A stretch of DNA of 64,000 bases from the NCBI GenBank assembly GCA_046160825.1, contig JBJXHC010000038.1, positions 3,697-67,696 on the forward strand, read 5' to 3'. This document shows positions 7,641-20,752 of the stretch, in pieces. Origin of the DNA: Bacteroidota bacterium (GTDB lineage: Bacteria; Bacteroidota; Ignavibacteria; UBA10030; UBA6906). Under the pieces are notes generated by a model. It worked only from the letters and a program-made list of their open reading frames with translations, ran no database searches and was not told the origin of the DNA. The translations under genes were made by a program, and so were the position numbers. Each line of letters starts with the position of its first letter. Positions within the stretch are counted from its first letter, which is position 1.

Positions 7641-7907
7641 GTGATTGAACGCGATGTGACCATACGGAATAGAGCAGGACTGCATACAAGACCGGCGGCA
7701 ACACTTGTCAAGACAGCCGCGCGGTTCAAGGCGGAGTTCTTCATTCAAAAAGACGGGTTCGAGATCAACGGCAAAAGTATTATCGGTGTTATGACTCTGG
7801 CTGCGGAACAGGGTTCCACGCTTCACCTCACGTTTGACGGTCCCGATGAGGAGGAAGCGGCAACAGCCGTGGTTGACCTATTTGAGCGCGGGTTCGACGA
7901 ACAATGA
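7641..7907 (+). CDS. ptsH: Phosphocarrier protein HPr
   Basis: A GTG start at 7641 gives an 88-aa protein with the active-site His at position 15 (RAGLHTRPAA) and a Ser46-type motif (GKSIIGVMTLAA). The 101-aa form in the ORF track overlaps the upstream gene and mis-positions His15. Confidence 0.8.
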   Translation: MIERDVTIRNRAGLHTRPAATLVKTAARFKAEFFIQKDGFEINGKSIIGVMTLAAEQGSTLHLTFDGPDEEEAATAVVDLFERGFDEQ

Positions 7908-9673
7908 GCGAAACAACAACAGCAGTCGAGACACAGGAAATTATTCTCAAGGGCATCCCCGCTGCGCCGGGCATTGCCATGGGTCCTGCGTACCTCTACA
8001 GCAAACAAGTCCCGCTTGTGAAGCTCAAGGAGATTGCCCCACCAGAAGTCGAGGCAGAAATCGAACGCCTGCGCGCATCAGTCCTGCGCGCCGAAAAAGA
8101 ACTCCAGAAGATTCTCTCGTTCGCTGAACAGAAACTCGGAACCCAGAGTGCCCGGATCTTCGAAGCCCAGATCATGATCCTGAACGATCAAATCCTGATG
8201 GATGCAATTGAACGACGGATCCGGACAGAATTGAAGAACTCTGAATATCTCGTCATGGACGAGATCAACAAGTACAAACGTATCATGCTGGAGGCTCCGG
8301 GTGAGTATATGCATGAACGGGCACACGACCTTGATGACGTGATGAACCGTATCATCCGCAATATTCAAGACCAGAAGTTGTTCTCGCGGCTCACTGGGGA
8401 GTCCATTATCGTCTCCGAATCCCTCACACCTGCCGACACTGTTATTTTCAGCCGCAACCAGATTCTCGGATATGCAACGGACTTCGGCGGCACCACATCG
8501 CACGCCGCGCTGCTTTCCCGTTCACTCAAGATTCCTGCGGTCGTCGCACTCCACTCCGTGACAAAGCAAATTCGTACAGGCGATTTTCTCGCCGTGGATG
8601 GCTACGGAGGCATTGTCGCCGTGAACCCGACGGAAGAGACGATCCAGAGAATGAAACGGAAGCAGCAACGCTTCAAGGATTTTGAGCAGGACCTCGTCTC
8701 CATTTCCGGACTCGCGGCTGAAACACTTGACCATCGTCAGGTCGAGCTTTCGGCAAATATCGAATTCGAAGACGAGACCGATTTTGCGCTTGAGCAAGGT
8801 TCCGCAGGAATCGGGCTCTATCGCACCGAAGGACAACTCATGGGCCGCAACACATTTCCCTCTGAGGATGAGCAATATGCAGAGTACAGAAATGTGGCTG
8901 AACGTATCCATCCCCACCCTGTCCTCTTTCGGACGTTCGATATTGGCGGGGATAAGATATCGCCGGATGCGCTGCATGAGGAGAATCCGTTCCTCGGCTG
9001 GCGCGGTATTCGCATTTCTCTCGACAGACCCGACGCTTTTCTGGCCCAATTGCGGGCGCTCCTGAGAGCGAGCACAAAGAAGAATGTCCGCATCATGTTC
9101 CCCATGATCTCCAGTGTGCAGGAAGTCCGGCGGGCAAAGGAACTTCTCGGACAAGCCAAGAAGGAATTGACAGCGAAAAATCTCCCCTTCGATCCCAATA
9201 TCCACATCGGTGTGATGATTGAAGTCCCCTCCGCTGCACTCCTCGCCGAAGAGATCGCCAGGGAAGTGGACTTCCTCAGCATCGGAACGAATGATTTGAT
9301 TCAGTACGTTCTTGCCGTGGACCGCGGGAACGCGGCGGTTGCCTCGCTTTACCAGGAATTCAATCCTGCCGTCGTCCGACTCATCAAGTCTGTGATTACC
9401 GCGGGACATAAGCACAATAAATGGGTGGGTATGTGCGGCGAGATGGCTGGTGACCCACTTGCAACCGTGCTGTTGGTGGGAATGGGATTGGACGAGTTCA
9501 GCGTGGTCCCCACCATCCTGCCGGAGATCAAGAAAATTATTCGATCCATCAAATTCAAGGAAGCGAAACGGATCGCGGACAAAGCACTGACGTTCTCCAC
9601 TGAAGACGAAATCAAAGCGTACCTTGCAGAATTCGTAAAGAGCAAGCTCCCTGACATTCCCATCGAAGCATAA
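7904..9673 (+). CDS. ptsI: Phosphoenolpyruvate-protein phosphotransferase (Enzyme I)
   Basis: It is 589 aa with the GGTTSHAALLSRSLKIPAVV phospho-His region and a PEP-utilising TIM-barrel C-terminus (IGTNDLIQY, CGEMAGDP). The ATGA overlap with ptsH indicates coupling. Confidence 0.95.
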   Translation: MSETTTAVETQEIILKGIPAAPGIAMGPAYLYSKQVPLVKLKEIAPPEVEAEIERLRASVLRAEKELQKILSFAEQKLGTQSARIFEAQIMILNDQILMDAIERRIRTELKNSEYLVMDEINKYKRIMLEAPGEYMHERAHDLDDVMNRIIRNIQDQKLFSRLTGESIIVSESLTPADTVIFSRNQILGYATDFGGTTSHAALLSRSLKIPAVVALHSVTKQIRTGDFLAVDGYGGIVAVNPTEETIQRMKRKQQRFKDFEQDLVSISGLAAETLDHRQVELSANIEFEDETDFALEQGSAGIGLYRTEGQLMGRNTFPSEDEQYAEYRNVAERIHPHPVLFRTFDIGGDKISPDALHEENPFLGWRGIRISLDRPDAFLAQLRALLRASTKKNVRIMFPMISSVQEVRRAKELLGQAKKELTAKNLPFDPNIHIGVMIEVPSAALLAEEIAREVDFLSIGTNDLIQYVLAVDRGNAAVASLYQEFNPAVVRLIKSVITAGHKHNKWVGMCGEMAGDPLATVLLVGMGLDEFSVVPTILPEIKKIIRSIKFKEAKRIADKALTFSTEDEIKAYLAEFVKSKLPDIPIEA

Positions 9674-9696
9674 TGTAAATCAACAGAAGGACCACC

Positions 9697-10746
9697 ATGA
9701 CGTTTGAAGAAATCTTTGCGGTCGATGTTTCCAACATGTACAATCTCATCAAGCAATTCCCCCAGCAGGTACGGGAAGCCGTGGCAATTGGCAATGCGGC
9801 CAGCATCAAAGTAAAATCAAAAGGAATTGAGAACATCGTGCTGTGCGGGCTCGGCGGCTCGGCGATCGGGGGCGACTTGTTGAAAAGTTATCTCGCCGGA
9901 GAGCTCACCGTCCCCTTCATCGTCAACCGGAGTTACACGTTGCCGAAGTTTGTCGGATCGAAGACGCTGGTGATTGTCTCCAGCTATTCCGGCAATACGG
10001 AAGAGACGAACGCTGCACACCGCGAGGCTATCAAGCGCCGGGCAAAAATTCTCTGTATCTCCTCCAACGGCACCACAGGGAAACTCGCGAAAGCAAAACG
10101 TACACCGCTTATCACAATCCCGGGCGGTCTTCCTCCTCGCGCTGCCTTGGGATATTCCTTCTTTCCTCTTCTCATCGCGTTGAGTAAGATGGGATTTATC
10201 AAGAACAAGGCGAGGGACATTCGCGAGACTATCACATTGCTGGAGGAAAAGTCCACCGATTATGGCACACCTGACGAATTGACCAACAATGCGCTTCAAC
10301 TCGCCGCGCAGTTGCGCGGACGCCTTGGCGTCATTTATACATCCACTGAGCGGCTCGATGCGGTGAATACGCGTTGGCGGGGACAGGTAGCCGAAAATGC
10401 AAAGTCGCTGCTCTTCGGGCATGTACTGCCGGAAATGAACCACAACGAGCTTGTCGGCTGGAAGGTACTGGGCGATCTGATGAGCGAGACCCAAGTGTTA
10501 TTTCTCCGCGACAAGGATGACCACAAACGTATTGCTTACCGCATGGACATCACGAAACAGATCATCGGTGAGCACACGGAGCGCATGACCGATGTATGGA
10601 GCGAAGGAACGACGCTTCTGGCGCGCATGTTCTCGCTTGTGTATCTTGGTGACTGGGTAAGCTACTATCTGGCCATACTCCATCAACAAGACCCGATGCC
10701 CGTTGCGGTAATTGATCACTTAAAGAATGAATTGGGGAAAATATGA
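9697..10746 (+). CDS. Bifunctional phosphoglucose/phosphomannose isomerase (SIS-domain, archaeal-type PGI/PMI)
   Basis: It has a SIS domain (VLCGLGGSAIGGDL, VIVSSYSGNTEET) and a C-terminal bact-PGI_C-like region, and is about 349 aa. Confidence 0.75.
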   Translation: MTFEEIFAVDVSNMYNLIKQFPQQVREAVAIGNAASIKVKSKGIENIVLCGLGGSAIGGDLLKSYLAGELTVPFIVNRSYTLPKFVGSKTLVIVSSYSGNTEETNAAHREAIKRRAKILCISSNGTTGKLAKAKRTPLITIPGGLPPRAALGYSFFPLLIALSKMGFIKNKARDIRETITLLEEKSTDYGTPDELTNNALQLAAQLRGRLGVIYTSTERLDAVNTRWRGQVAENAKSLLFGHVLPEMNHNELVGWKVLGDLMSETQVLFLRDKDDHKRIAYRMDITKQIIGEHTERMTDVWSEGTTLLARMFSLVYLGDWVSYYLAILHQQDPMPVAVIDHLKNELGKI

Positions 10747-11026: not shown

Positions 11027-11314
11027 ATGGAGAACATTTTGCCATTAATCATCCAACTGATCAGCGGCGCAGTTGGAGGAAACGTTGTTGGCAGCCTGGC
11101 AAAGAACCTGAACCTCGGAACGGTCGGGAATTCAATTGCGGGGATTGTCGGAGGAGGTCTCGGGGGTCAGATTTTGGGCATGCTCGGCACCGGCATGGAA
11201 ACCGGCGGCGGAATGGATGCCGGGAGTATCATCGGCAGCATTGCATCGGGCGGTGTCGGGGGCGGCATTGTGATGGCGATAGTCGGAGTTATCAAGAAAG
11301 CAATGGCGAAATAA
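11027..11314 (+). CDS. GlsB/YeaQ/YmgE family (transglycosylase-associated) small membrane stress protein
   Basis: It is 95 aa, glycine-rich with two TM helices (ILPLIIQLISGAVGGNVVGSL...GGGIVMAIVGVIKKAM), typical of PF04226. An AGGAGG RBS lies 8 nt upstream. Confidence 0.8.
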   Translation: MENILPLIIQLISGAVGGNVVGSLAKNLNLGTVGNSIAGIVGGGLGGQILGMLGTGMETGGGMDAGSIIGSIASGGVGGGIVMAIVGVIKKAMAK

Positions 11315-11327
11315 ATAGTTGACTTAT

Positions 11328-11358
11328 GTGGACGGGACGACCTGTCCCGTCCACAGTC
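11328..11358 (+). terminator. Strong perfect hairpin (12-bp stem TGTGGACGGGAC / GTCCCGTCCACA, 5-nt loop) downstream of the GlsB gene, a terminator-like element lacking a U-tract
   Basis: The inverted repeat is read directly from the sequence. It sits 14 nt after the stop codon and about 130 nt upstream of the next gene. Confidence 0.4.
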
Positions 11359-11486
11359 AGTTGCAGCCACAGGTTTGATCCCACCACCGCACCTTGCAAC
11401 TTCGCTCCATTCTCCCTATACTTTCAATGAGCCACCATCCTCACCATCTCCACGCCGTACTCCGAACAGTGATTGACGGGACTGTG

Positions 11487-14306
11487 ATGCGTCGTTTCCG
11501 AGTGCTGTCTATTTCCATCCTTCTTCTCATCTGTGGGTCCACCACCGTCGCGCAATTCTTCTATTTTGGCCGTAACAAAGTCCAGTACACCGATTTTGAC
11601 TGGCACGTCCTCAAGACCGAACACTTCGACATCTATTATTATCCTGAGATGAAAGACCTTGCCGAGCGCGGGGCGTTTTTTGCCGAGGAGGCGTACAAGG
11701 AACTCGAGACAAAATTCAACCATTCGCTCAACAACCGCGTCCCTCTCATTTTTTATAGCTCGCACCTTCACTTCCAGCAGACCAATACCACGGGCGGTTT
11801 CATCCCGGAAGGTGTTGGGGGATTTTTTGAATTCCTGAAGGGCCGGGTCGTCATCCCATCCGACGGTTCCACCTACCAATTCCGACACGTCATCCGGCAT
11901 GAGATGGTGCATGTGTTCATGCACAGCAAGATTGCGCGCGTCCTTATCGATCATCGCAAGACGCAGGATCGCTTTCCGCCGCTCTGGTTCACCGAGGGGC
12001 TCGCCGAATACTGGTCCACCGATTGGGACACACAAGCGGAAATGGTGATGCGCGATGCTGTGCTCAGCGATATTATCGTCGGCCTCGATGACATGGATCG
12101 CATCTACGGATCGTTCCTGATGTACAAAGAAGGACAGGCTGTCCTCGAATATATCGGCAAGACGTATGGTGAGGAAAAGATTCTCCTGCTGATGGAGAAT
12201 TTCTGGAAGGTGAGCTCGTTCAGTGAGGTCTTCAAAATTACACTCGGGAAGAACTACAAAGAATTTGACGAAGAGTGGCTCTACGCACTCAAGAAAAAAT
12301 ACTATCCCCTTCTTGCCACCTACGACTCGCCGAGTAGCGTCACGGTCAATGTCGTAAAGGAAGGGTTCAACGCGAAACCTGTGGTGTTCGAGCACGATTC
12401 CACCCGCGACGTGTATTTCATCGGCAACCAGACCGGGTACACGGGCATCTATAAAAAATCGTTGGACGACGAGAAACCGGATGCTTCCGCCACTAACGTT
12501 GTACAAGGTGAGAAGTCGGATGAGTTTGAGGCGTTCCATCCATTCCGTACCCGTATGGATATTTCCAAAGATGGCGTGCTCGCATTCACGACGAAGAGCG
12601 GCGAGAGTGATGTTCTGCACTTATATAATCTGTTCAACGAGAAAATTATTGAGACCTTCCGTTTTCGCGAACTCGTCAGCATCGGGTCAACGTCGTGGTC
12701 ACCAGACGGGAAGCACGTTGCGTTTGCTTCGATTAACAAGAGCGGCAATAACGATTTGTATATCCTGAATACCGAAACCCATGATCTCCGCAAACTCACC
12801 AACGATTATTATGACGACCGTGACCCGGCATGGTCGCCACGCGGCGACCAGATTGCCTTCAGCTCCGACCGGACGCCATACGGCAAGAAAGGCAAGTACA
12901 GTCTTTTTCTTTTTGATATCGAGTCGGGAACAATCACCTATCTCACATACGGAAACGAAAGCTCAGGCTCACCGGCATGGTCTAAAGATGGAAGCAAACT
13001 CGCTTTCACATGCGATGCAGACGGCGCACAAAATATCTGGATGATGAATATGCGTGATTCGGTGCTGGCCATGCGTTCCATGACCAAGGTAACGCATTTC
13101 ACCACTGCTGCCTTCGATCCGACCTGGACAAAAGACGGCGATCTCGTGTTCGCTGCGTTTGAAGGGTTCAGTTTCCAGATTCGAATGCTGAAAAATATCG
13201 AGTCTACATTTGACAGCGCGCGCACCGTCCGGATGATCGATCTCTACAAGGAAAAGCCCTGGGAGAGCAAGTCCATTGCCGGCGTTTCAGAGGTCAAGAC
13301 ATTCAAGTACCAAGGCGACTACAGTCTTGATATCGCACAGAGCGCGATTTCCACCGATCCGGTTTTCGGAACATCTGGAGGGGCGTTCGTTGCGTTGAGC
13401 GATTTGCTGGGCAACGATCAATACTATTTCCTGCTCTACAATACCGCGCAATCGCAGGACGAGCTTCTTTCCAGTTTCAATATCGCCATCTCACGCGTCT
13501 CACTAAGCCAGCGCACAAACTATGCTTATGGCATCTACCGGTTCAGCGGGCGGCGCTACGACCTGACGGACAAGGACGAATTTTATTATGAGCGAGTATT
13601 CGGCGGATACCTCGCACTCAGCTATCCACTGACAAAATTCCAGCGCATAGAAACCTCCGTCAGTCTAAGCAACTCCAACAAGGACGTGGACTTCATTATT
13701 GAAGACCGGAAGGCATTGCTTCTATCCAACTCTGTCTCGTTCACACACGATAATTCGCTCTGGGGTCCAAGCGGACCGTTGGATGGCAGCAGGTTCAACC
13801 TGACGCTCGCCTTCACGTCGGACATTCAATACTCGAACGTCAATTACTACACGGCGATCATCGACTACCGTCATTATTTCAGACTCTCGCAACGCAGCAC
13901 TTTTGCCTCGCGTGCTTGGCTCTTTTACAATGACGGCAAGGAATCGCGCCGATTCGTGATGGGTGGGAGTTGGGATTTACGCGGCTTCCCACGGTGGTCG
14001 ATTCGCGGTGAAAAACTCTGGTTGACAAGTCAGGAACTCCGCTTCCCATTCATCGATCAACTCGCGATCCGGTTTCCATTTGTCGGGTTGAGTTTCTGGT
14101 CGATCCGGGGGGCACTCTTCTTTGATGCGGGAAGTGCATGGGACGACGAGTATTCCGAGACGCTCGGCAGCGTCGGCGGCGGGTTGCGTATGAACCTCGC
14201 CGGGGCATTCGTCCTCCGGTATGATATCGGCAAAAGGATCGAGAATAATTTCAGTACGATCCAAAATGATCTGTTCCATCAATTCTTCTTCGGCTGGGAT
14301 TTCTAA
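11487..14306 (+). CDS. Outer-membrane protein with a fused architecture: signal peptide, HExxH metallopeptidase-like domain, TolB-like PD40 beta-propeller repeats, and a C-terminal Omp85/BamA-type 16-strand beta-barrel
   Basis: - The signal peptide is MRRFRVLSISILLLICGSTTVAQ.
- The HExxH motif lies in RHVIRHEMVHVFMH.
- PD40 repeats include SPDGKHVAFASINKSGNNDLYILN, WSPRGDQIAFSSDR and PAWSKDGSKLAFTCDADGAQNIWMMN.
- The C-terminus carries the conserved Omp85 loop-6 motif (MGGSWDLRGF) and a terminal aromatic residue (FFFGWDF).
- The start was trimmed from the track ORF 11394. Confidence 0.8.
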   Translation: MRRFRVLSISILLLICGSTTVAQFFYFGRNKVQYTDFDWHVLKTEHFDIYYYPEMKDLAERGAFFAEEAYKELETKFNHSLNNRVPLIFYSSHLHFQQTNTTGGFIPEGVGGFFEFLKGRVVIPSDGSTYQFRHVIRHEMVHVFMHSKIARVLIDHRKTQDRFPPLWFTEGLAEYWSTDWDTQAEMVMRDAVLSDIIVGLDDMDRIYGSFLMYKEGQAVLEYIGKTYGEEKILLLMENFWKVSSFSEVFKITLGKNYKEFDEEWLYALKKKYYPLLATYDSPSSVTVNVVKEGFNAKPVVFEHDSTRDVYFIGNQTGYTGIYKKSLDDEKPDASATNVVQGEKSDEFEAFHPFRTRMDISKDGVLAFTTKSGESDVLHLYNLFNEKIIETFRFRELVSIGSTSWSPDGKHVAFASINKSGNNDLYILNTETHDLRKLTNDYYDDRDPAWSPRGDQIAFSSDRTPYGKKGKYSLFLFDIESGTITYLTYGNESSGSPAWSKDGSKLAFTCDADGAQNIWMMNMRDSVLAMRSMTKVTHFTTAAFDPTWTKDGDLVFAAFEGFSFQIRMLKNIESTFDSARTVRMIDLYKEKPWESKSIAGVSEVKTFKYQGDYSLDIAQSAISTDPVFGTSGGAFVALSDLLGNDQYYFLLYNTAQSQDELLSSFNIAISRVSLSQRTNYAYGIYRFSGRRYDLTDKDEFYYERVFGGYLALSYPLTKFQRIETSVSLSNSNKDVDFIIEDRKALLLSNSVSFTHDNSLWGPSGPLDGSRFNLTLAFTSDIQYSNVNYYTAIIDYRHYFRLSQRSTFASRAWLFYNDGKESRRFVMGGSWDLRGFPRWSIRGEKLWLTSQELRFPFIDQLAIRFPFVGLSFWSIRGALFFDAGSAWDDEYSETLGSVGGGLRMNLAGAFVLRYDIGKRIENNFSTIQNDLFHQFFFGWDF

Positions 14307-14307
14307 C

Positions 14308-15441
14308 GTGAAAAAACTGTTCATCATCATCATCTTCCTCTTGTCCGGTTGCGGAGGGCTGCGCCTCAACCAACGACTTGTATTGGATGAGAACGACTGG
14401 CCGATGTTTGCCCGAACAACAACGCGTGTCGGCATTGCAACAGAGATGCTCGTCCCGCCTTTTGCAAGACTTTGGGAACATGACGTCACAAGCGGGTTTG
14501 GCACCGGATCGCCGGTCGTGGTCGACAGTTTCCTGATGCTCGGCAACCTCCGCGGCGAGTTGTACGTGGTGAATATACACTCCGGCAAGAGAGTCGGTTG
14601 GGTGGATATCGGCGACGCAATCAACGGAACACCTGTCTTCTCTGCCGGCGTGGTGTTTGTCCCGGTGTCCAACAGCGAAGAATCGCTCATCGCATTCGAT
14701 CTCGCAGAAGGAAAGCCGCTATGGAGTAAGAACTATGGGGACATTGAGGCATCACCTCTTCTTCTGGAGAAGAAACTATATGTGGGAAATACACGCGGCG
14801 CATTTTTCTGTATTGATATTGAAACAGGCGATCAGGTCTGGAAATTTGAATTGGAGAATAACACAAAGCGTAAAGGAATCCGTTCGTCGGCTGCCAGTAA
14901 TGGAAGCGCGATAATTTTCGGGGCCGACGATGGCGCGATATATTCCCTTGATGCGCAGAAGGGCTTGCTGCAATGGAGTGTACAGACTGACGCCGCGATC
15001 ATGGCCACCCCGTGCATTGTCGAAGGAAATGCTCTTGTGGGAAATACCAACGGCACCATGATTGCCGTTCGCATCAATGACGGAACGCTGGCGTGGAGTT
15101 ATGCGGCAGGAGCGAGTGTTTATTCAACTCCCATCCTGGCGGCCGGACTCAGCATCTTCGGAACCACAGGGGGAAAAATGATTGCTCTTAGACAGGATGG
15201 AAGCGCTGCGTGGACTTCCGACGTCGGTGGTGTAGTGAGTGCGTCTGCTGCTCTTTCCGGCACCACAATGTTTGTCGGAACCTTGAAAAAGGAGTTTCTT
15301 GCCCTCGACGCAATTACGGGATCCATCGTTTGGCGCGACACTGTTGCGGGGCGGATCAAATCCTCGCCCGCAATTGCGGACGGCAAGGTGTTTATTGCAA
15401 CGGACGAGCGTCTGGTGCTCGCGTATACGGAGAAGAAATGA
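14308..15441 (+). CDS. PQQ-repeat beta-propeller lipoprotein (BamB/YfgL-like)
   Basis: A GTG start lies 2 nt after the upstream stop. The lipoprotein signal is KKLFIIIIFLLSGC. At least seven PQQ-type repeats are present, including GDQVWKF, GLLQWSV, GTLAWSY and GSIVWRD. Confidence 0.75.
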   Translation: MKKLFIIIIFLLSGCGGLRLNQRLVLDENDWPMFARTTTRVGIATEMLVPPFARLWEHDVTSGFGTGSPVVVDSFLMLGNLRGELYVVNIHSGKRVGWVDIGDAINGTPVFSAGVVFVPVSNSEESLIAFDLAEGKPLWSKNYGDIEASPLLLEKKLYVGNTRGAFFCIDIETGDQVWKFELENNTKRKGIRSSAASNGSAIIFGADDGAIYSLDAQKGLLQWSVQTDAAIMATPCIVEGNALVGNTNGTMIAVRINDGTLAWSYAAGASVYSTPILAAGLSIFGTTGGKMIALRQDGSAAWTSDVGGVVSASAALSGTTMFVGTLKKEFLALDAITGSIVWRDTVAGRIKSSPAIADGKVFIATDERLVLAYTEKK

Positions 15442-16232
15442 TACCCCAACGATGGGCACTGATTGTTTTTCTGGTGGGATACGCTACTTGTGTCGCGGCC
15501 CGGGATTCGACACAAACCCAGGTGATCCCACCAACGCGTACTATCACAATTCTCTCCGATGTTGAAGGGGCAACAGCCTTCATCAATGGAGAAAAGAAAG
15601 GTCACACTCCCGTTTCCGCTGACCTTGCCGAGGGACACTATACTCTCCTGATCGTTCATCCCGATCACGACGACTGGCGCGCGGAGAGCATCCGCGACAG
15701 CTTTGAAGTGGAGGCTACTTCTCGGGACACATTGCATTTCCGGTTCGGACAATATGTCTCAATAACCTCGGATCCATTCGGTGCTGAGGTGGTTATCGAG
15801 GACTCGATCGTCGGTACCACACCGATGGTTTTTCAAAATAATGAGACCATTTCCGCCACACTGTTGGTCCGCAAGCCGGGGTATGAACCGGCTACACTCG
15901 ACCTTCGTTCCGATGGGACAAACAAATTCACGGTGACACTCGCACGACATGGTACGGGTACGGGTACGGATCCCTCCGACGTATTCTCGGATCATTCCTA
16001 CTCATCCTCTTCATCATTGCGACTTTATATTGCAGGCGCGGCTGCGGTGATTTCCGGAGCATTGGCTGCGCATTTCAAACTCAAGGCGGATGACAATTAT
16101 GCAGCGTACCGCTTCACTCGCGATCCTGCAGCACTCGACAGAACACATCGCTTCGACACGGCGGCAGCTCTGTCCATCGCTGCCACACAGATAAGTGTCG
16201 GCTTGTTTACGTACTTCATCCTCTCCGACTGA
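15438..16232 (+). CDS. PEGA-domain protein (two PEGA repeats plus a C-terminal hydrophobic segment)
   Basis: An ATGA overlap joins it to the upstream gene. The signal/TM segment is MIPQRWALIVFLVGYATCVAA. The two PEGA repeats are ITILSDVEGATAFINGEKKGHTPV and ITSDPFGAEVVIEDSIVGTTPMVF...RKPGYEP. The C-terminus carries LYIAGAAAVISGALAA. Confidence 0.7.
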   Translation: MIPQRWALIVFLVGYATCVAARDSTQTQVIPPTRTITILSDVEGATAFINGEKKGHTPVSADLAEGHYTLLIVHPDHDDWRAESIRDSFEVEATSRDTLHFRFGQYVSITSDPFGAEVVIEDSIVGTTPMVFQNNETISATLLVRKPGYEPATLDLRSDGTNKFTVTLARHGTGTGTDPSDVFSDHSYSSSSSLRLYIAGAAAVISGALAAHFKLKADDNYAAYRFTRDPAALDRTHRFDTAAALSIAATQISVGLFTYFILSD

Positions 16233-16353
16233 AGAGGAATATGAGCAGTTGATGCTTACGCGTTGCTTCCCTTGACTTTCATCACACAACAGCCTATATT
16301 CGCTACAGCATTTTGCATAAATGTGACTGCGCCTCCAGCCGACACAACTACTC

Positions 16354-16434: not shown

Positions 16435-17061
16435 ATGGATCTCGACACCATCGCAAAGGTTGGCGTGCGGAAGAAATACAAGAAGGGAAGCATTATCCTT
16501 CTGGAAGAAGAAGCCGGTGCCGCCTTGTTTGTTATCATCTCCGGCAAAGTGAAAATCGTGAGAATGGATGATGACGGGCGCGAGGTGATCCTTTCCATTC
16601 TTGGCGAAAGTGATTTTTTTGGGGAGATGGCCATTCTCGACGGACTGGCACGTTCGGCAAGTGTCGTTGCCATCTCGAAGTCGGAGCTGTTCATGATTCA
16701 CCGGCGCGACTTCCTCAAACTTCTTCACGATTTTCCCTCGGTGGCAATCGCGTTACTCAAAGAGTTGACCATGCGGCTCCGCAAAGCGGATGCCCAGATC
16801 AAGAGCCTGTCGCTGAAAGATGCTGCAGGGCGGGTCGCCAACGTGATCCTGCAGTTGGCAGACGATATCGGCAAGATCCGCAAAGGTCGGGTCGAGATTG
16901 ACGAGCTTCCTCTCCAGCAAGATCTGGCGAACATGGCCGGCACGTCGCGCGAGACAATCTCACGCATGATTCATTCTTTTATCCGCGAAGGCCACCTGGA
17001 ACTTGAGCGAGGCAAGCTCATTATCAACGATTATGAAAAGTTTAAGAGCAGATATTTGTAG
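16435..17061 (+). CDS. Crp/Fnr family transcriptional regulator
   Basis: It has a cNMP-binding domain (GSIILLEEEAGAALFVIISGKVKIV...FFGEMAIL) and a C-terminal HTH (QQDLANMAGTSRETISRMI). Confidence 0.9.
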   Translation: MDLDTIAKVGVRKKYKKGSIILLEEEAGAALFVIISGKVKIVRMDDDGREVILSILGESDFFGEMAILDGLARSASVVAISKSELFMIHRRDFLKLLHDFPSVAIALLKELTMRLRKADAQIKSLSLKDAAGRVANVILQLADDIGKIRKGRVEIDELPLQQDLANMAGTSRETISRMIHSFIREGHLELERGKLIINDYEKFKSRYL

Positions 17062-18484: not shown

Positions 18485-20752
18485 ATGAAAAAGAGCGTGT
18501 GGTGTGCCCTGCTGCTTGCGTTCCCATGTCTTGCCGTTGCCTCCGTCGGAACGTGGCAAAATTATACTTCCATGAAGGATGTACGCGATGTCGCGCATTC
18601 GGGGGAAACATTCTGGGCAGCAACAAGCGGCGGGTTGTTTGCCTGGAGAGAGGGATCGTTGGAGTTTCAGCGATTCACCAATGCTGAGGGTCTCCGGAAG
18701 ATTGATCTTACTGCCGTCGCGGTAGACACGAGAGGCAATATCTGGACGGGAGCCTCCACCGGCACAATCCACGTCTACTCCCCTTCCCAAAATAGCTGGA
18801 CTTACATTCTTGATATCGAAGCTGATGACCAGCAAACCAATAAACGTATTAATAAAATCGTCGTCCAGGGCGACACGGTACTTATTTGCACTGAATTTGG
18901 CTTGAGCCTGTATGACAATGATCGATTGCAATTCGGGGATACCTACAAAAGATTTGGCTCACTTCCCGCATCGAGCAGGGTGGCCGTGTATGATGCCCTA
19001 ATCCACAACGGAAGCATCTGGGCAGCGGTTGGCACAAGCCAAACTAGTAACTATGTCGCGGTTGCGAGCCTATCCAATCCCAACCTCCTTCCTGCCGAAT
19101 CCTGGACTCTCCAGAGTGTCGATCCATCGCTCGCGCAGATTCGAGCATTGGATGTTTTCAATGGTTCTCTGTATGCCGGGACAGCGAACGGTTTGTACAT
19201 GCTGAATTCCGGTACTTGGACGGGAATCACGTCAGTTGTGGGGCGCAATGTCGTCAACGTGGAGGCCGGTGACACCGGACTTGCACTATGCACAGCCACC
19301 CGCGAAGTACTTCTTGTTGATGCGTTGAATAACGCTACACCGTTTGGCACCATCCTTCCGTTCACGCCAACCTCAATCACGTTTGACAGCCAGAACCAGC
19401 CGGCCGTCGGCTCCGACGATGGAGGCATTCTCCGGTTCACGGCGGCTTGGGAATCATATTTCCCCAATGGCCCAAACTCCAATCAGTTCATCAGTATTAC
19501 TGTCGATCCCGATGGTGTGTTATGGGCGGCTTCCGGTTACAGTGGCAATGGTGCAGGATTCTATAGATACAACGGGAGAGAATGGAAATCATTCACAATG
19601 GAAAACAGTGGCCTGCCGACCAACGATTACTTCAGAGTGTCGGTCGGTTGTAATGGCTCCCTGTGGGCAAGCTCCTGGGGATGGGGCGTTGTGGAAGTGC
19701 CAAGAGGTGCAGAAAGCATTGACACGAGCAATGTGTACGGAAGAAACGTTGGAATGATCGGGCTGACCGTGAACCCCGATTATATTGTCATAAGCACTGT
19801 GCAGTGTGATCGATTCGGCAACACGTGGATGTCAGTGTTGGGTGCAACAGATAAGAACATCCTGGCCGTTCGGCGGTCCGATGACACCTGGTCAACCATG
19901 CCCGCATGGTTTGGCTCAACAAGAATGAACACGTTGCTCGACAATATTCCTGTCGATAGAACGTTCGCATTGGATGCATCGGGAAATCTGTGGGCAGCTT
20001 CCCGTGATGACTTTTACAAGGGGGTAATCTCCTTTAGTAATCGGGCGACCGACACCGTCAGGGTTCATCTCAGTGACCAGAATGGCCTTCCAAGCAATGA
20101 CATCAAAACCATCGTCGTCGATCGCGAGAACGACCTCTGGATCGGGACTGACAGAGGAATTGGCATTGTGCTTACCCCTGAAAACCCCACAGGATCAAAT
20201 GGCATTGCTACTTACCGGCCACTCAATGGACTGGTCATCAACACAATAGCGGTGGATGCCCTGAATCAGAAATGGGTCGGAACAACTGAAGGAGCTGTTC
20301 TTCTTTCCCAAGATGGTACTCAACTCCTTGCATCATACACCGTCGAAAGCACCGGAGGAAAACTCATCGATAACGATGTGAAGAGTATCGCTATTGACAC
20401 TGAGACTGGTACGGTGTATTTTGGTACAGTAAACGGGCTCGCCAGCCTGACGACGACCAGCGCAGCTCCCAAGGTTGCGTTTGACGAATTGGAATTCTCC
20501 CCAAATCCATATATCGTTCCAAGTGCAACCCCGCTTACTGTTGACGGCCTTGTCGAGAACTCGAGCATAAAAATCCTTTCGATGGACGGTCGCCTTGTCC
20601 GCAATTTGACAACCCCCGGTGGGCGTATCGGCTTTTGGGATGGCAGAGATGATATAGGGAACAGTGTCGCCACGGGTGTTTACCTCGTAGTTGCTTTTTC
20701 CGATGATGGAAGTAAAGTTGCCACCGGCAAGGTGGCTGTTGTGAGGAGGTAG
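18485..20752 (+). CDS. Secreted multi-repeat beta-propeller protein (two-component-regulator-propeller / Reg_prop-like repeats) with a T9SS-type C-terminal sorting domain
   Basis: It has a signal peptide and many G-W-x-GT-x-x-GL repeats, including NIWTGASTGTIHVY, LWIGTDRGIGIV and KWVGTTEGAVLL. The last roughly 80 aa (FSPNPYIVPS...IKILSMDGRLVRNL...GVYLVVAFSDDGSKVATGKVAVVRR) fit the Por/T9SS CTD pattern. Confidence 0.75.
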   Translation: MKKSVWCALLLAFPCLAVASVGTWQNYTSMKDVRDVAHSGETFWAATSGGLFAWREGSLEFQRFTNAEGLRKIDLTAVAVDTRGNIWTGASTGTIHVYSPSQNSWTYILDIEADDQQTNKRINKIVVQGDTVLICTEFGLSLYDNDRLQFGDTYKRFGSLPASSRVAVYDALIHNGSIWAAVGTSQTSNYVAVASLSNPNLLPAESWTLQSVDPSLAQIRALDVFNGSLYAGTANGLYMLNSGTWTGITSVVGRNVVNVEAGDTGLALCTATREVLLVDALNNATPFGTILPFTPTSITFDSQNQPAVGSDDGGILRFTAAWESYFPNGPNSNQFISITVDPDGVLWAASGYSGNGAGFYRYNGREWKSFTMENSGLPTNDYFRVSVGCNGSLWASSWGWGVVEVPRGAESIDTSNVYGRNVGMIGLTVNPDYIVISTVQCDRFGNTWMSVLGATDKNILAVRRSDDTWSTMPAWFGSTRMNTLLDNIPVDRTFALDASGNLWAASRDDFYKGVISFSNRATDTVRVHLSDQNGLPSNDIKTIVVDRENDLWIGTDRGIGIVLTPENPTGSNGIATYRPLNGLVINTIAVDALNQKWVGTTEGAVLLSQDGTQLLASYTVESTGGKLIDNDVKSIAIDTETGTVYFGTVNGLASLTTTSAAPKVAFDELEFSPNPYIVPSATPLTVDGLVENSSIKILSMDGRLVRNLTTPGGRIGFWDGRDDIGNSVATGVYLVVAFSDDGSKVATGKVAVVRR

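Follow-up and report, generated by a model that had tools for sequence, protein, structure and literature searches.

Which function could be served by an Omp85 barrel that carries a peptidase and a propeller in the place where POTRA domains are normally found? The question is raised by a three-gene operon in a 64,000-nucleotide stretch of DNA (hereinafter, the window) from a Bacteroidota bacterium of the class Ignavibacteria (UBA10030; UBA6906; GenBank assembly GCA_046160825.1, contig JBJXHC010000038.1, positions 3,697 to 67,696 of the forward strand). The initial annotation of this operon described the product of gene 1 as a signal peptide, an HExxH peptidase-like domain, a TolB-like propeller and an Omp85 barrel, followed by a BamB-like lipoprotein (gene 2) and a PEGA protein (gene 3), and considered the arrangement novel. 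Here we argue that gene 1 encodes a member of an already catalogued Omp85 subfamily, that across phyla its gene is linked to those of a BamB-like lipoprotein and a hydrophobic hairpin protein, and that these proteins may, tentatively, form a peptidase complex anchored in the outer membrane.

All parts of this layout were recovered by Pfam searches and in an AlphaFold2 model of the gene 1 product built from 55 diverse relatives (30-54% identity), and the motifs quoted previously, RHEMVHVFMH, GGSWDLRGF and a terminal Phe, are present (see Table 1 for coordinates). The model has a mean predicted local distance difference test score (pLDDT) of 89.2 and a predicted template-modelling score (pTM) of 0.89, the domain arrangement being confidently predicted as a single rigid unit. 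Residues 1-26 are of low confidence, in line with a signal peptide, which is likely to be cleaved by signal peptidase I because the Cys within it is not conserved among the relatives. Residues 27-285 are modelled as one domain that is mixed alpha/beta at first and helical thereafter. The next segment, residues 287-585, contains 24 strands that fall into six sets of four (pLDDT mostly >90), that is, a six-bladed propeller as in TolB; the propeller is therefore upheld, with the number of blades corrected from "at least three" to six. A short linker (residues 586-610) leads to the barrel, the 16 long strands of which span residues 612-937 (pLDDT mostly >85). Pfam reports PD40 three times (5e-21) and PF01103 at residues 677-921 (2e-13, 50.8 bits against a cut-off of 24), and a Foldseek comparison of the model with the PDB retrieved TolB (1.7e-11), BamA barrels (about 1e-10, TMt 0.55-0.60) and tricorn protease. 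Sequence and profile searches of the PDB agree with this result, TolB being the top propeller match. Thus the strand count, the BamA matches and PF01103 all bear out a C-terminal 16-strand barrel of the Omp85 type. Strands 11 and 12 are connected by a long loop that holds the loop-6 motif GGSWDLRGF (residues 826-834, 13962..13988); all of the 55 relatives share G827 and R832 of this motif, and at least 90% of them share G826 and G833. The chain ends in the C-terminal beta-signal ...FFFGWDF. Among the NCBIfam models, only sub-threshold matches were obtained (TolB, an "Omp85 family" model and flagellinolysin); in particular, the TolB model TIGR02800 scores 107.3 bits against a cut-off of 343 and covers only the propeller (profile positions 205-300). 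POTRA domains are indeed missing from the periplasmic position: the gene 1 product gives no PF07244 match at E <= 0.1, and the model contains no POTRA-like element, residues 586-610 being devoid of a beta-alpha-alpha-beta-beta unit. Such an absence is the known exception that defines the non-POTRA Omp85 subfamilies.

The nature of the N-terminal domain is central to any functional interpretation. The Peptidase_MA_2 match at residues 164-266 is marginal (32.5 bits with the whole protein and 34.8 with the isolated domain, against a cut-off of 32.4). The HEMVH motif (11898..11912; H138, E139, H142) and the putative third zinc ligand E170, within LWFxEGLAEY, are invariant in the 55 relatives, so that the previously noted HExxH peptidase-like domain is confirmed by this family assignment together with the invariant HExxH and Glu. 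When N-terminal domains were searched in isolation, all 22 matched Peptidase_MA_2 (best E 1e-16), 14 matched the M9 collagenase family, 12 matched BSP and 9 matched M61. Similarly, a profile of the peptidase domain retrieved from the PDB microbial collagenases only, albeit weakly (best E 0.002), and the alignment with ColG runs without gaps from RHEYTH to WFDEGTAEF, so that the spacing between HExxH and Glu is identical; in ColG, the aligned Glu is the zinc ligand. By these signatures, the predicted N-terminal domain is a gluzincin with an intact catalytic set that is closest to collagenase-type endopeptidases, and we infer that it is catalytically competent, with a putative zinc-dependent activity.

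Is the fusion real? The protein search with the gene 1 product yielded more than 5000 matches, the best 120 of which are all full-length (72-100% identity, over 100 of them at 72-83%), show an identical Pfam string and are annotated as "BamA/TamA family outer membrane protein" or "PD40 domain-containing protein" in metagenome-assembled genomes (MAGs) of Ignavibacteria and Bacteroidota. In an exhaustive search of 50%-identity cluster representatives, 2187 proteins fell below E 1e-30, and more than 100 of the representatives listed are full-length matches of about 920-1100 residues with 30-54% identity. Relatives with 47-53% identity are found in MAGs of Melioribacteraceae, Rhodothermales and Caldithrix, and the family as a whole is represented in Ignavibacteria, Rhodothermales, Cytophagia, Calditrichota, KSB1, Latescibacterota, Gemmatimonadota, Zixibacteria, Eisenbacteria, Marinimicrobia, Krumholzibacteriota and Kryptonia. 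Because full-length relatives are so numerous, down to 30-54% identity, a frameshift or assembly join within gene 1 is excluded, and the fusion is genuine, with full-length orthologues across phyla. To judge from this distribution, the family is real and ancient and extends throughout the Fibrobacteres-Chlorobi-Bacteroidetes (FCB) superphylum. It also includes a clade of longer proteins (about 1090-1125 residues; L084:1438-4701, L085:523-3810, L086:1395-4724) with some 200 residues more from peptidase to barrel.

The architecture, which the initial annotation had been unable to map, turns out to have been described. The Omp85/TpsB superfamily was divided by Heinz & Lithgow 2014 (Front Microbiol 5:370, PMC4104836), who defined a "WD40-like Omp85" (WD40-Omp85) subfamily. 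Their Table S3 gives about 90 members, each with a TolB hit (2w8b/2ivz) and a best aminopeptidase hit, the latter being to tricorn-interacting factor F3, aminopeptidase N, ERAP1 or ColH; 1z5h, 4kxd, 4ar1 and 3qnf are the PDB entries given for the peptidase hits. Among those listed are Ignavibacterium album (I0AKC8) and Melioribacter roseus (I7A1M2), together with Caldithrix, Rhodothermus, Salinibacter, Pedobacter, several Cytophagales and delta-proteobacteria such as Anaeromyxobacter, Geobacter, Sorangium and Myxococcus. The domain order is identical (an aminopeptidase/collagenase-like domain, a PD40/TolB-like propeller, PF01103 and no POTRA), the architecture is no different from that of gene 1, and the taxa agree as well (Ignavibacterium, Melioribacter, Caldithrix, Rhodothermus, Salinibacter, Cytophagales). 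A later summary speaks of Omp85s with "divergent WD40 and peptidase domains" (PMC11358297, 2024). By its predicted domains, then, the gene 1 product is a further member of the WD40-like Omp85 subfamily, catalogued but uncharacterised. The 2014 work is a bioinformatic catalogue, in the available part of which no conservation of catalytic residues, no linked lipoprotein or hairpin genes and no function were found; the searchable literature yielded no functional, structural or genetic study of WD40-like Omp85 proteins, and neither the paper on the structure of the Bacteroidota barrel assembly machinery (BAM; PMC12611786) nor a 2026 BAM review mentions the family. The claim that no characterised system matches thus survives a search of the literature.

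Gene 2 begins a single nucleotide after the stop codon of gene 1 (TAA-C-GTG); the GTG start and the translational coupling noted previously hold, with the gap corrected from 2 nt to 1, and in annotated close relatives the two genes overlap by one base. The gene 2 product carries a lipoprotein signal (MKKLFIIIIFLLSGC) with the lipobox LLSGC (Cys15 at 14350..14352), matches PQQ_2 at 7e-42 and retrieves BamB structures from the PDB at 1e-15. Its scores with the BamB equivalogs are both below threshold (TIGR03300, 147.7 against 285.2 bits; NF008351, 118.4 against 423), so that the assignment to the "BamB/YfgL type" is justified at the level of fold and family but not as an equivalog, and the barrel protein offers no POTRA3 for a BamB to bind. 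The lipobox is found in at least 50 of 59 gene 2 orthologues, and an acidic surface-export motif after the lipobox Cys in none of the 59. Such an acidic motif marks surface-exposed lipoproteins of Bacteroidota.

Synteny in the close relatives (L001, L002) is uninformative as evidence of linkage, the whole neighbourhood being conserved there, and a cross-phylum analysis was used instead. The neighbourhoods were scanned in one genome per species (80 loci), six-frame open reading frames being searched with phmmer and with iterated hidden Markov models built from genes 2 and 3. Downstream sequence of 1.3 kb or more is present at 74 of the loci, and at 55 of these, from about ten phyla, the gene that follows directly on the same strand is BamB-like; the linkage holds in Gemmatimonadota, Zixibacteria, Latescibacterota and Marinimicrobia, where the rest of the window synteny is gone. 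A member of the gene 3 family lies downstream on the same strand at 32 of 65 loci. Neither a BamB-like nor a hairpin gene was found beside the three loci of the longer clade (L084, L085, L086). This conservation of the gene pair or triplet across phyla strengthens the earlier idea of a dedicated multi-protein envelope module, and in the literature searched the cross-phylum linkage of the gene 1 family to a BamB-like lipoprotein and a hairpin protein appears to be unreported. The BAM complex of FCB bacteria, BamADGH, is essential and contains no BamB-like subunit (PMC12611786), and BamB is considered to have arisen within Proteobacteria (2026 BAM review). Since the FCB complex lacks such a subunit, the gene 2 lipoprotein is probably dedicated to this barrel and, BamB being viewed as a proteobacterial invention, is unlikely to be a general BAM subunit. 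Anwari et al. 2012 reported unexplained "BamB" hits in Myxococcus, Anaeromyxobacter and Haliangium; WD40-like Omp85 members are listed from the first two of these genera in PMC4104836, which offers a lead.

Gene 3 overlaps gene 2 as ATGA, as noted previously, and the description of its product as a PEGA protein with a C-terminal hydrophobic anchor is likewise sustained. PEGA (PF08308) is matched in two stretches (5e-18, 65.2 bits against 20.8), and in the AlphaFold2 model (pLDDT 82.6) two C-terminal helices (residues 189-227 and 230-263, pLDDT 87-96) form a hairpin with paired hydrophobic halves of membrane length and a polar tip. When relatives are aligned, the conserved part is the C-terminal stretch of about 75 residues, in which K214 and D240 are invariant, and the orthologues from Latescibacterota, Gemmatimonadota, Marinimicrobia and Eisenbacteria are only about 140 residues long, comprising a signal peptide and the hairpin module. 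PEGA was accordingly rejected as the conserved core of the protein, since distant orthologues keep the hairpin only. Given the combination of a signal peptide, two sandwiches and a hairpin, and the absence of PEGA in distant phyla, the "surface-layer-type PEGA module" of the initial annotation is unlikely. Foldseek returned weak matches only (the N-terminal extension (NTE) of SusC, 3e-3; F-ATPase c subunits at E >1), which suggest, without proving, a membrane hairpin. In Zixibacteria and in a clade with 40% identity, the lipoprotein gene is followed, in place of the hairpin gene, by a gene for a HEAT-repeat protein of about 740 residues without a signal peptide (L057:9869-12070; also L041, L042, L050, L052, L055, L061, L066 and L069). 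In Eisenbacteria, a second peptidase-propeller-Omp85 paralogue is found about 4 kb downstream of the first (L056:12961-14793, L068:12023-14773); here the PEGA-hairpin gene directly follows the first copy, and the BamB-like gene is absent.

How could these proteins work together? We tentatively favour, as the most economical function, the processing or disposal of envelope proteins, analogous to the work of BepA at BAM; the operon would encode a zinc metallopeptidase complex that is anchored in the outer membrane and faces the periplasm. The barrel would insert in the outer membrane and hold the peptidase and the propeller in the periplasm, for which the N-terminal domain of PlpD provides a precedent, and the propeller, as in tricorn and the S9 peptidases, might admit to the active site only polypeptides that are unfolded or extended. 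The BamB-like lipoprotein would dock on the periplasmic face as a scaffold or a substrate-delivery subunit, and the gene 3 hairpin would be anchored in the inner membrane, with the PEGA domains reaching the complex. Substrates such as misassembled outer-membrane proteins or lipoproteins could then be processed or disposed of. For export of substrates through the barrel, which had been put forward as an option in the initial annotation, no support was found.

Each of these parallels has its bounds. BepA, which acts at BAM, is likewise a periplasmic zinc HExxH protease at an Omp85 barrel and has a protein-interaction repeat domain; however, it is an M48 peptidase with TPR repeats, a separate soluble protein that docks reversibly, whereas the gene 1 product combines an MA_2/M9-like peptidase and a propeller with the barrel in a covalent fusion. 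BepA may be a plausible functional analogue with regard to quality control of outer-membrane proteins. PlpD, a patatin-like Omp85 protein, similarly joins an N-terminal enzyme domain to an Omp85 barrel, and experiments have placed this domain, for long regarded as secreted, exclusively in the periplasm (PMC11116518). Unlike the gene 1 product, PlpD has a lipase domain and POTRA and forms homodimers, and it is not known to have a propeller or a partner lipoprotein. In tricorn and the S9 prolyl-oligopeptidases, a PD40-type propeller is coupled to the peptidase and gates the access of substrates, but these are soluble serine peptidases without a barrel, whereas gene 1 would encode a zinc gluzincin on a membrane barrel.

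Several observations weigh against the proposed peptidase complex. Loop 6 and the barrel are as conserved as in BamA, so that the barrel may do more than anchor the complex. The BamB-like gene is missing at 19 of the 74 loci and likewise next to the genes of the longer clade (about 1090-1125 residues), which means that the partner is not obligatory for the fold; an Ignavibacteria clade with 52-54% identity and most Eisenbacteria are among those that lack it. The gene 3 hairpin could reside elsewhere than in the inner membrane, and the hairpin-only orthologues, with their short periplasmic parts, are hard to reconcile with a protein that reaches an outer-membrane complex. Finally, the promoter and terminator calls for the operon (see below) are weak.

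It is conceivable, although we consider it unlikely, that the gene 1 product is instead primarily an assembly factor for outer-membrane proteins, a variant of the BamA-like insertase in which the fused propeller, together with the separate BamB-like one, replaces POTRA as the platform on which substrates dock and the peptidase serves as a chaperone or proof-reader. Heinz & Lithgow suggest this interpretation, noting in PMC4104836 that WD40-like Omp85 proteins resemble a BamA-BamB fusion. The 16 strands, the invariant G..R of the loop-6 LRG[FY] motif and the strong conservation of the barrel are features that matter in BamA, and the conserved partner is, of the FCB proteins, the one most closely related to BamB. 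With the E. coli BAM, the operon indeed has in common the 16-strand barrel, the loop-6 (V/L)RG(F/Y), the C-terminal aromatic residue and a PQQ-type propeller lipoprotein. However, conservation of loop 6 is general among Omp85 proteins and so does not discriminate; gene 1 encodes no POTRA domains, which makes the BamB-POTRA3 interface impossible; no BamD is linked to the operon, and BamA has nothing that corresponds to the fused peptidase and propeller. Moreover, gene 2 falls below the BamB equivalog cut-off, the invariant catalytic HExxH...E argues for real proteolysis, and FCB bacteria already own the essential BamADGH, without a BamB-like subunit. The gene for one distant relative (L083:6001-9585; 1194 residues, with Peptidase_MA_2 and PD40 and a C-terminal half without a PF01103 match) directly follows pyrH-frr-uppS-cdsA-dxr-rseP and precedes uvrD, as in L082. 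The uppS-cdsA-dxr-rseP slot usually precedes bamA in many Proteobacteria. This placement could be taken in favour of an assembly factor, but it is seen in one lineage only, and the bamA slot as a general feature of the gene 1 family was rejected, L083 being the sole case.

The collagenase-like character of the peptidase, a type that is typically extracellular, invites another interpretation, namely, that the barrel exports or displays the peptidase and the propeller in a type-V-like manner, the surface protease then degrading extracellular proteins and feeding the uptake of peptides by these proteolytic FCB bacteria. The expansion of paralogues (tandem copies in Eisenbacteria, two copies in Rhodothermus and Caldithrix) would fit with diversification of substrates, and an analogous option for Omp85-metalloproteases is raised in PMC4104836. 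We consider this improbable: PlpD, the model for the idea, keeps its N-terminal domain in the periplasm (PMC11116518), 580 folded residues are unlikely to find a way through a 16-strand barrel filled by loop 6, the acidic surface-export motif is absent from the partner lipoprotein, the gene 3 product looks anchored in the inner membrane, and neither a TonB-dependent receptor nor a peptide transporter is linked to the operon in the loci examined. Quite improbable, in turn, is a tether of the Tol-Pal kind, in which the propeller would bind a Pal/OmpA-like peptidoglycan-associated lipoprotein and the complex would mainly stabilise or remodel the links between the outer membrane and peptidoglycan while the peptidase trims tethering proteins. 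TolB is the best match of the propeller in both sequence and fold, and an inner-membrane-anchored gene 3 product would provide a Tol-like trans-envelope arrangement. Yet, although the six-bladed propeller is common to both proteins, gene 1 lacks the N-terminal TolA-binding alpha/beta domain of TolB, and its TIGR02800 score is far below the cut-off; pal, tolQ, tolR and tolA are not linked in the loci examined, and propellers of the PD40 type are just as characteristic of peptidases, for instance tricorn and the S9 enzymes.

The favoured interpretation, a periplasm-facing peptidase complex, can be taken further to the doubtful proposition that the three proteins constitute a trans-envelope machine for disposal or processing, widespread among FCB bacteria and previously unrecognised. 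Beta-strand substrates, for instance stalled outer-membrane proteins, would be caught at the seam of the POTRA-less barrel and passed via the propeller to the fused collagenase-like peptidase; the dedicated BamB-like lipoprotein would assist, and the hairpin protein would provide the link to the inner membrane.

Table 1. Features of the operon and its surroundings (positions are those of the window; aa, residues of the respective product)
Feature	Position	Strand	Remarks
Gene 1	11487..14306	+	intact open reading frame, 939 aa: signal peptide, predicted gluzincin peptidase, six-bladed propeller, 16-strand barrel
Signal peptide of gene 1, predicted	11487..11555	+	aa 1-23, MRRFRVLSISILLLICGSTTVAQ; hydrophobic segment, low pLDDT at aa 1-26, consensus of relatives
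Peptidase_MA_2 / M9-collagenase-like gluzincin domain, predicted	11565..12341	+	aa 27-285
Putative third zinc ligand E170	11994..11996	+	within LWFTEGLAEYW
PD40/TolB-like propeller, six blades	12345..13241	+	aa 287-585; 24 strands
Omp85 16-strand beta-barrel	13317..14303	+	aa 611-939; PF01103, predicted structure
Gene 2	14308..15441	+	377-aa PQQ-repeat (BamB-like) propeller lipoprotein, GTG start
Gene 3	15438..16232	+	264 aa: signal peptide, two PEGA beta-sandwiches, disordered linker, hydrophobic helical hairpin
PEGA beta-sandwiches of gene 3	15534..15938	+	aa 33-101 and 105-167 (AlphaFold2)
Hydrophobic helical hairpin of gene 3	16002..16226	+	two C-terminal helices (AlphaFold2)
Stem-loop	~11327..11355	+	12-bp perfect arms (TGTGGACGGGAC / GTCCCGTCCACA), 5-nt loop; between upstream small open reading frame and operon
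Sigma-70-like promoter candidate	11394..11422	+	TTGCAA-17-TATACT, 65 nt upstream of gene 1 start; 9/12 consensus matches
Upstream small open reading frame	11027..11314	+	95 aa, glycine-rich, hydrophobic
Phosphotransferase system (PTS) enzyme I + bifunctional PGI-type SIS protein	7904..10746	+	upstream of operon
Crp/Fnr-type regulator	16435..17061	+	cNMP_binding + HTH_Crp_2; after operon
PorZ-like protein	18485..20752	+	755 aa, PorZ N-terminal propeller + Reg_prop repeats

As to the boundaries of the operon, the strong hairpin reported upstream of it is confirmed: the 12-bp stem folds with a free energy of -28.5 kcal/mol (z -4.6), and none of 200 shuffled sequences folds as well. There is no T tract, and the stem-loop is probably, as a weak call, the terminator of the upstream gene. 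The promoter candidate is weak, the region holding no more such sites than shuffled sequence, and no terminator was found after gene 3 (z +0.85). The upstream small open reading frame gave no Pfam or NCBIfam match at E <= 0.1, so that its earlier label of a stress protein is unconfirmed. The genes for PTS enzyme I and the SIS protein are syntenic only in close relatives and unlinked to the operon in other phyla. On the downstream side, the Crp/Fnr-type gene has a promoter-like site of its own (TTGACT-17-TATATT, 16272..16300) and keeps its position in four loci (L001, L002, L009, L035), and the PorZ-like gene, 2 kb downstream of the operon and syntenic in L001 and L002, looks like a component of type IX secretion.

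Omp85 proteins are central to outer-membrane biogenesis, and nearly all mechanistic work on them in the searchable literature deals with POTRA-bearing members. The WD40-like Omp85 subfamily comprises thousands of sequences from about a dozen FCB phyla, with a confidently predicted fold and a strictly conserved active site. The pairing with a BamB-like lipoprotein deserves attention because BamB is said to be proteobacterial (2026 BAM review) and the FCB BAM has no such subunit, and the linkage to the lipoprotein and the hairpin protein turns the family into a testable three-component system, the cultured carriers of which include Ignavibacterium album, Melioribacter roseus, Rhodothermus marinus and Salinibacter ruber. 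Should the three proteins indeed form a disposal or processing machine, the Omp85 superfamily would gain a new function, and BamB-like lipoproteins outside Proteobacteria would gain a non-BAM role. The system bears on the evolutionary re-use of Omp85 barrels and on how FCB bacteria police their unusually complex outer-membrane proteome.

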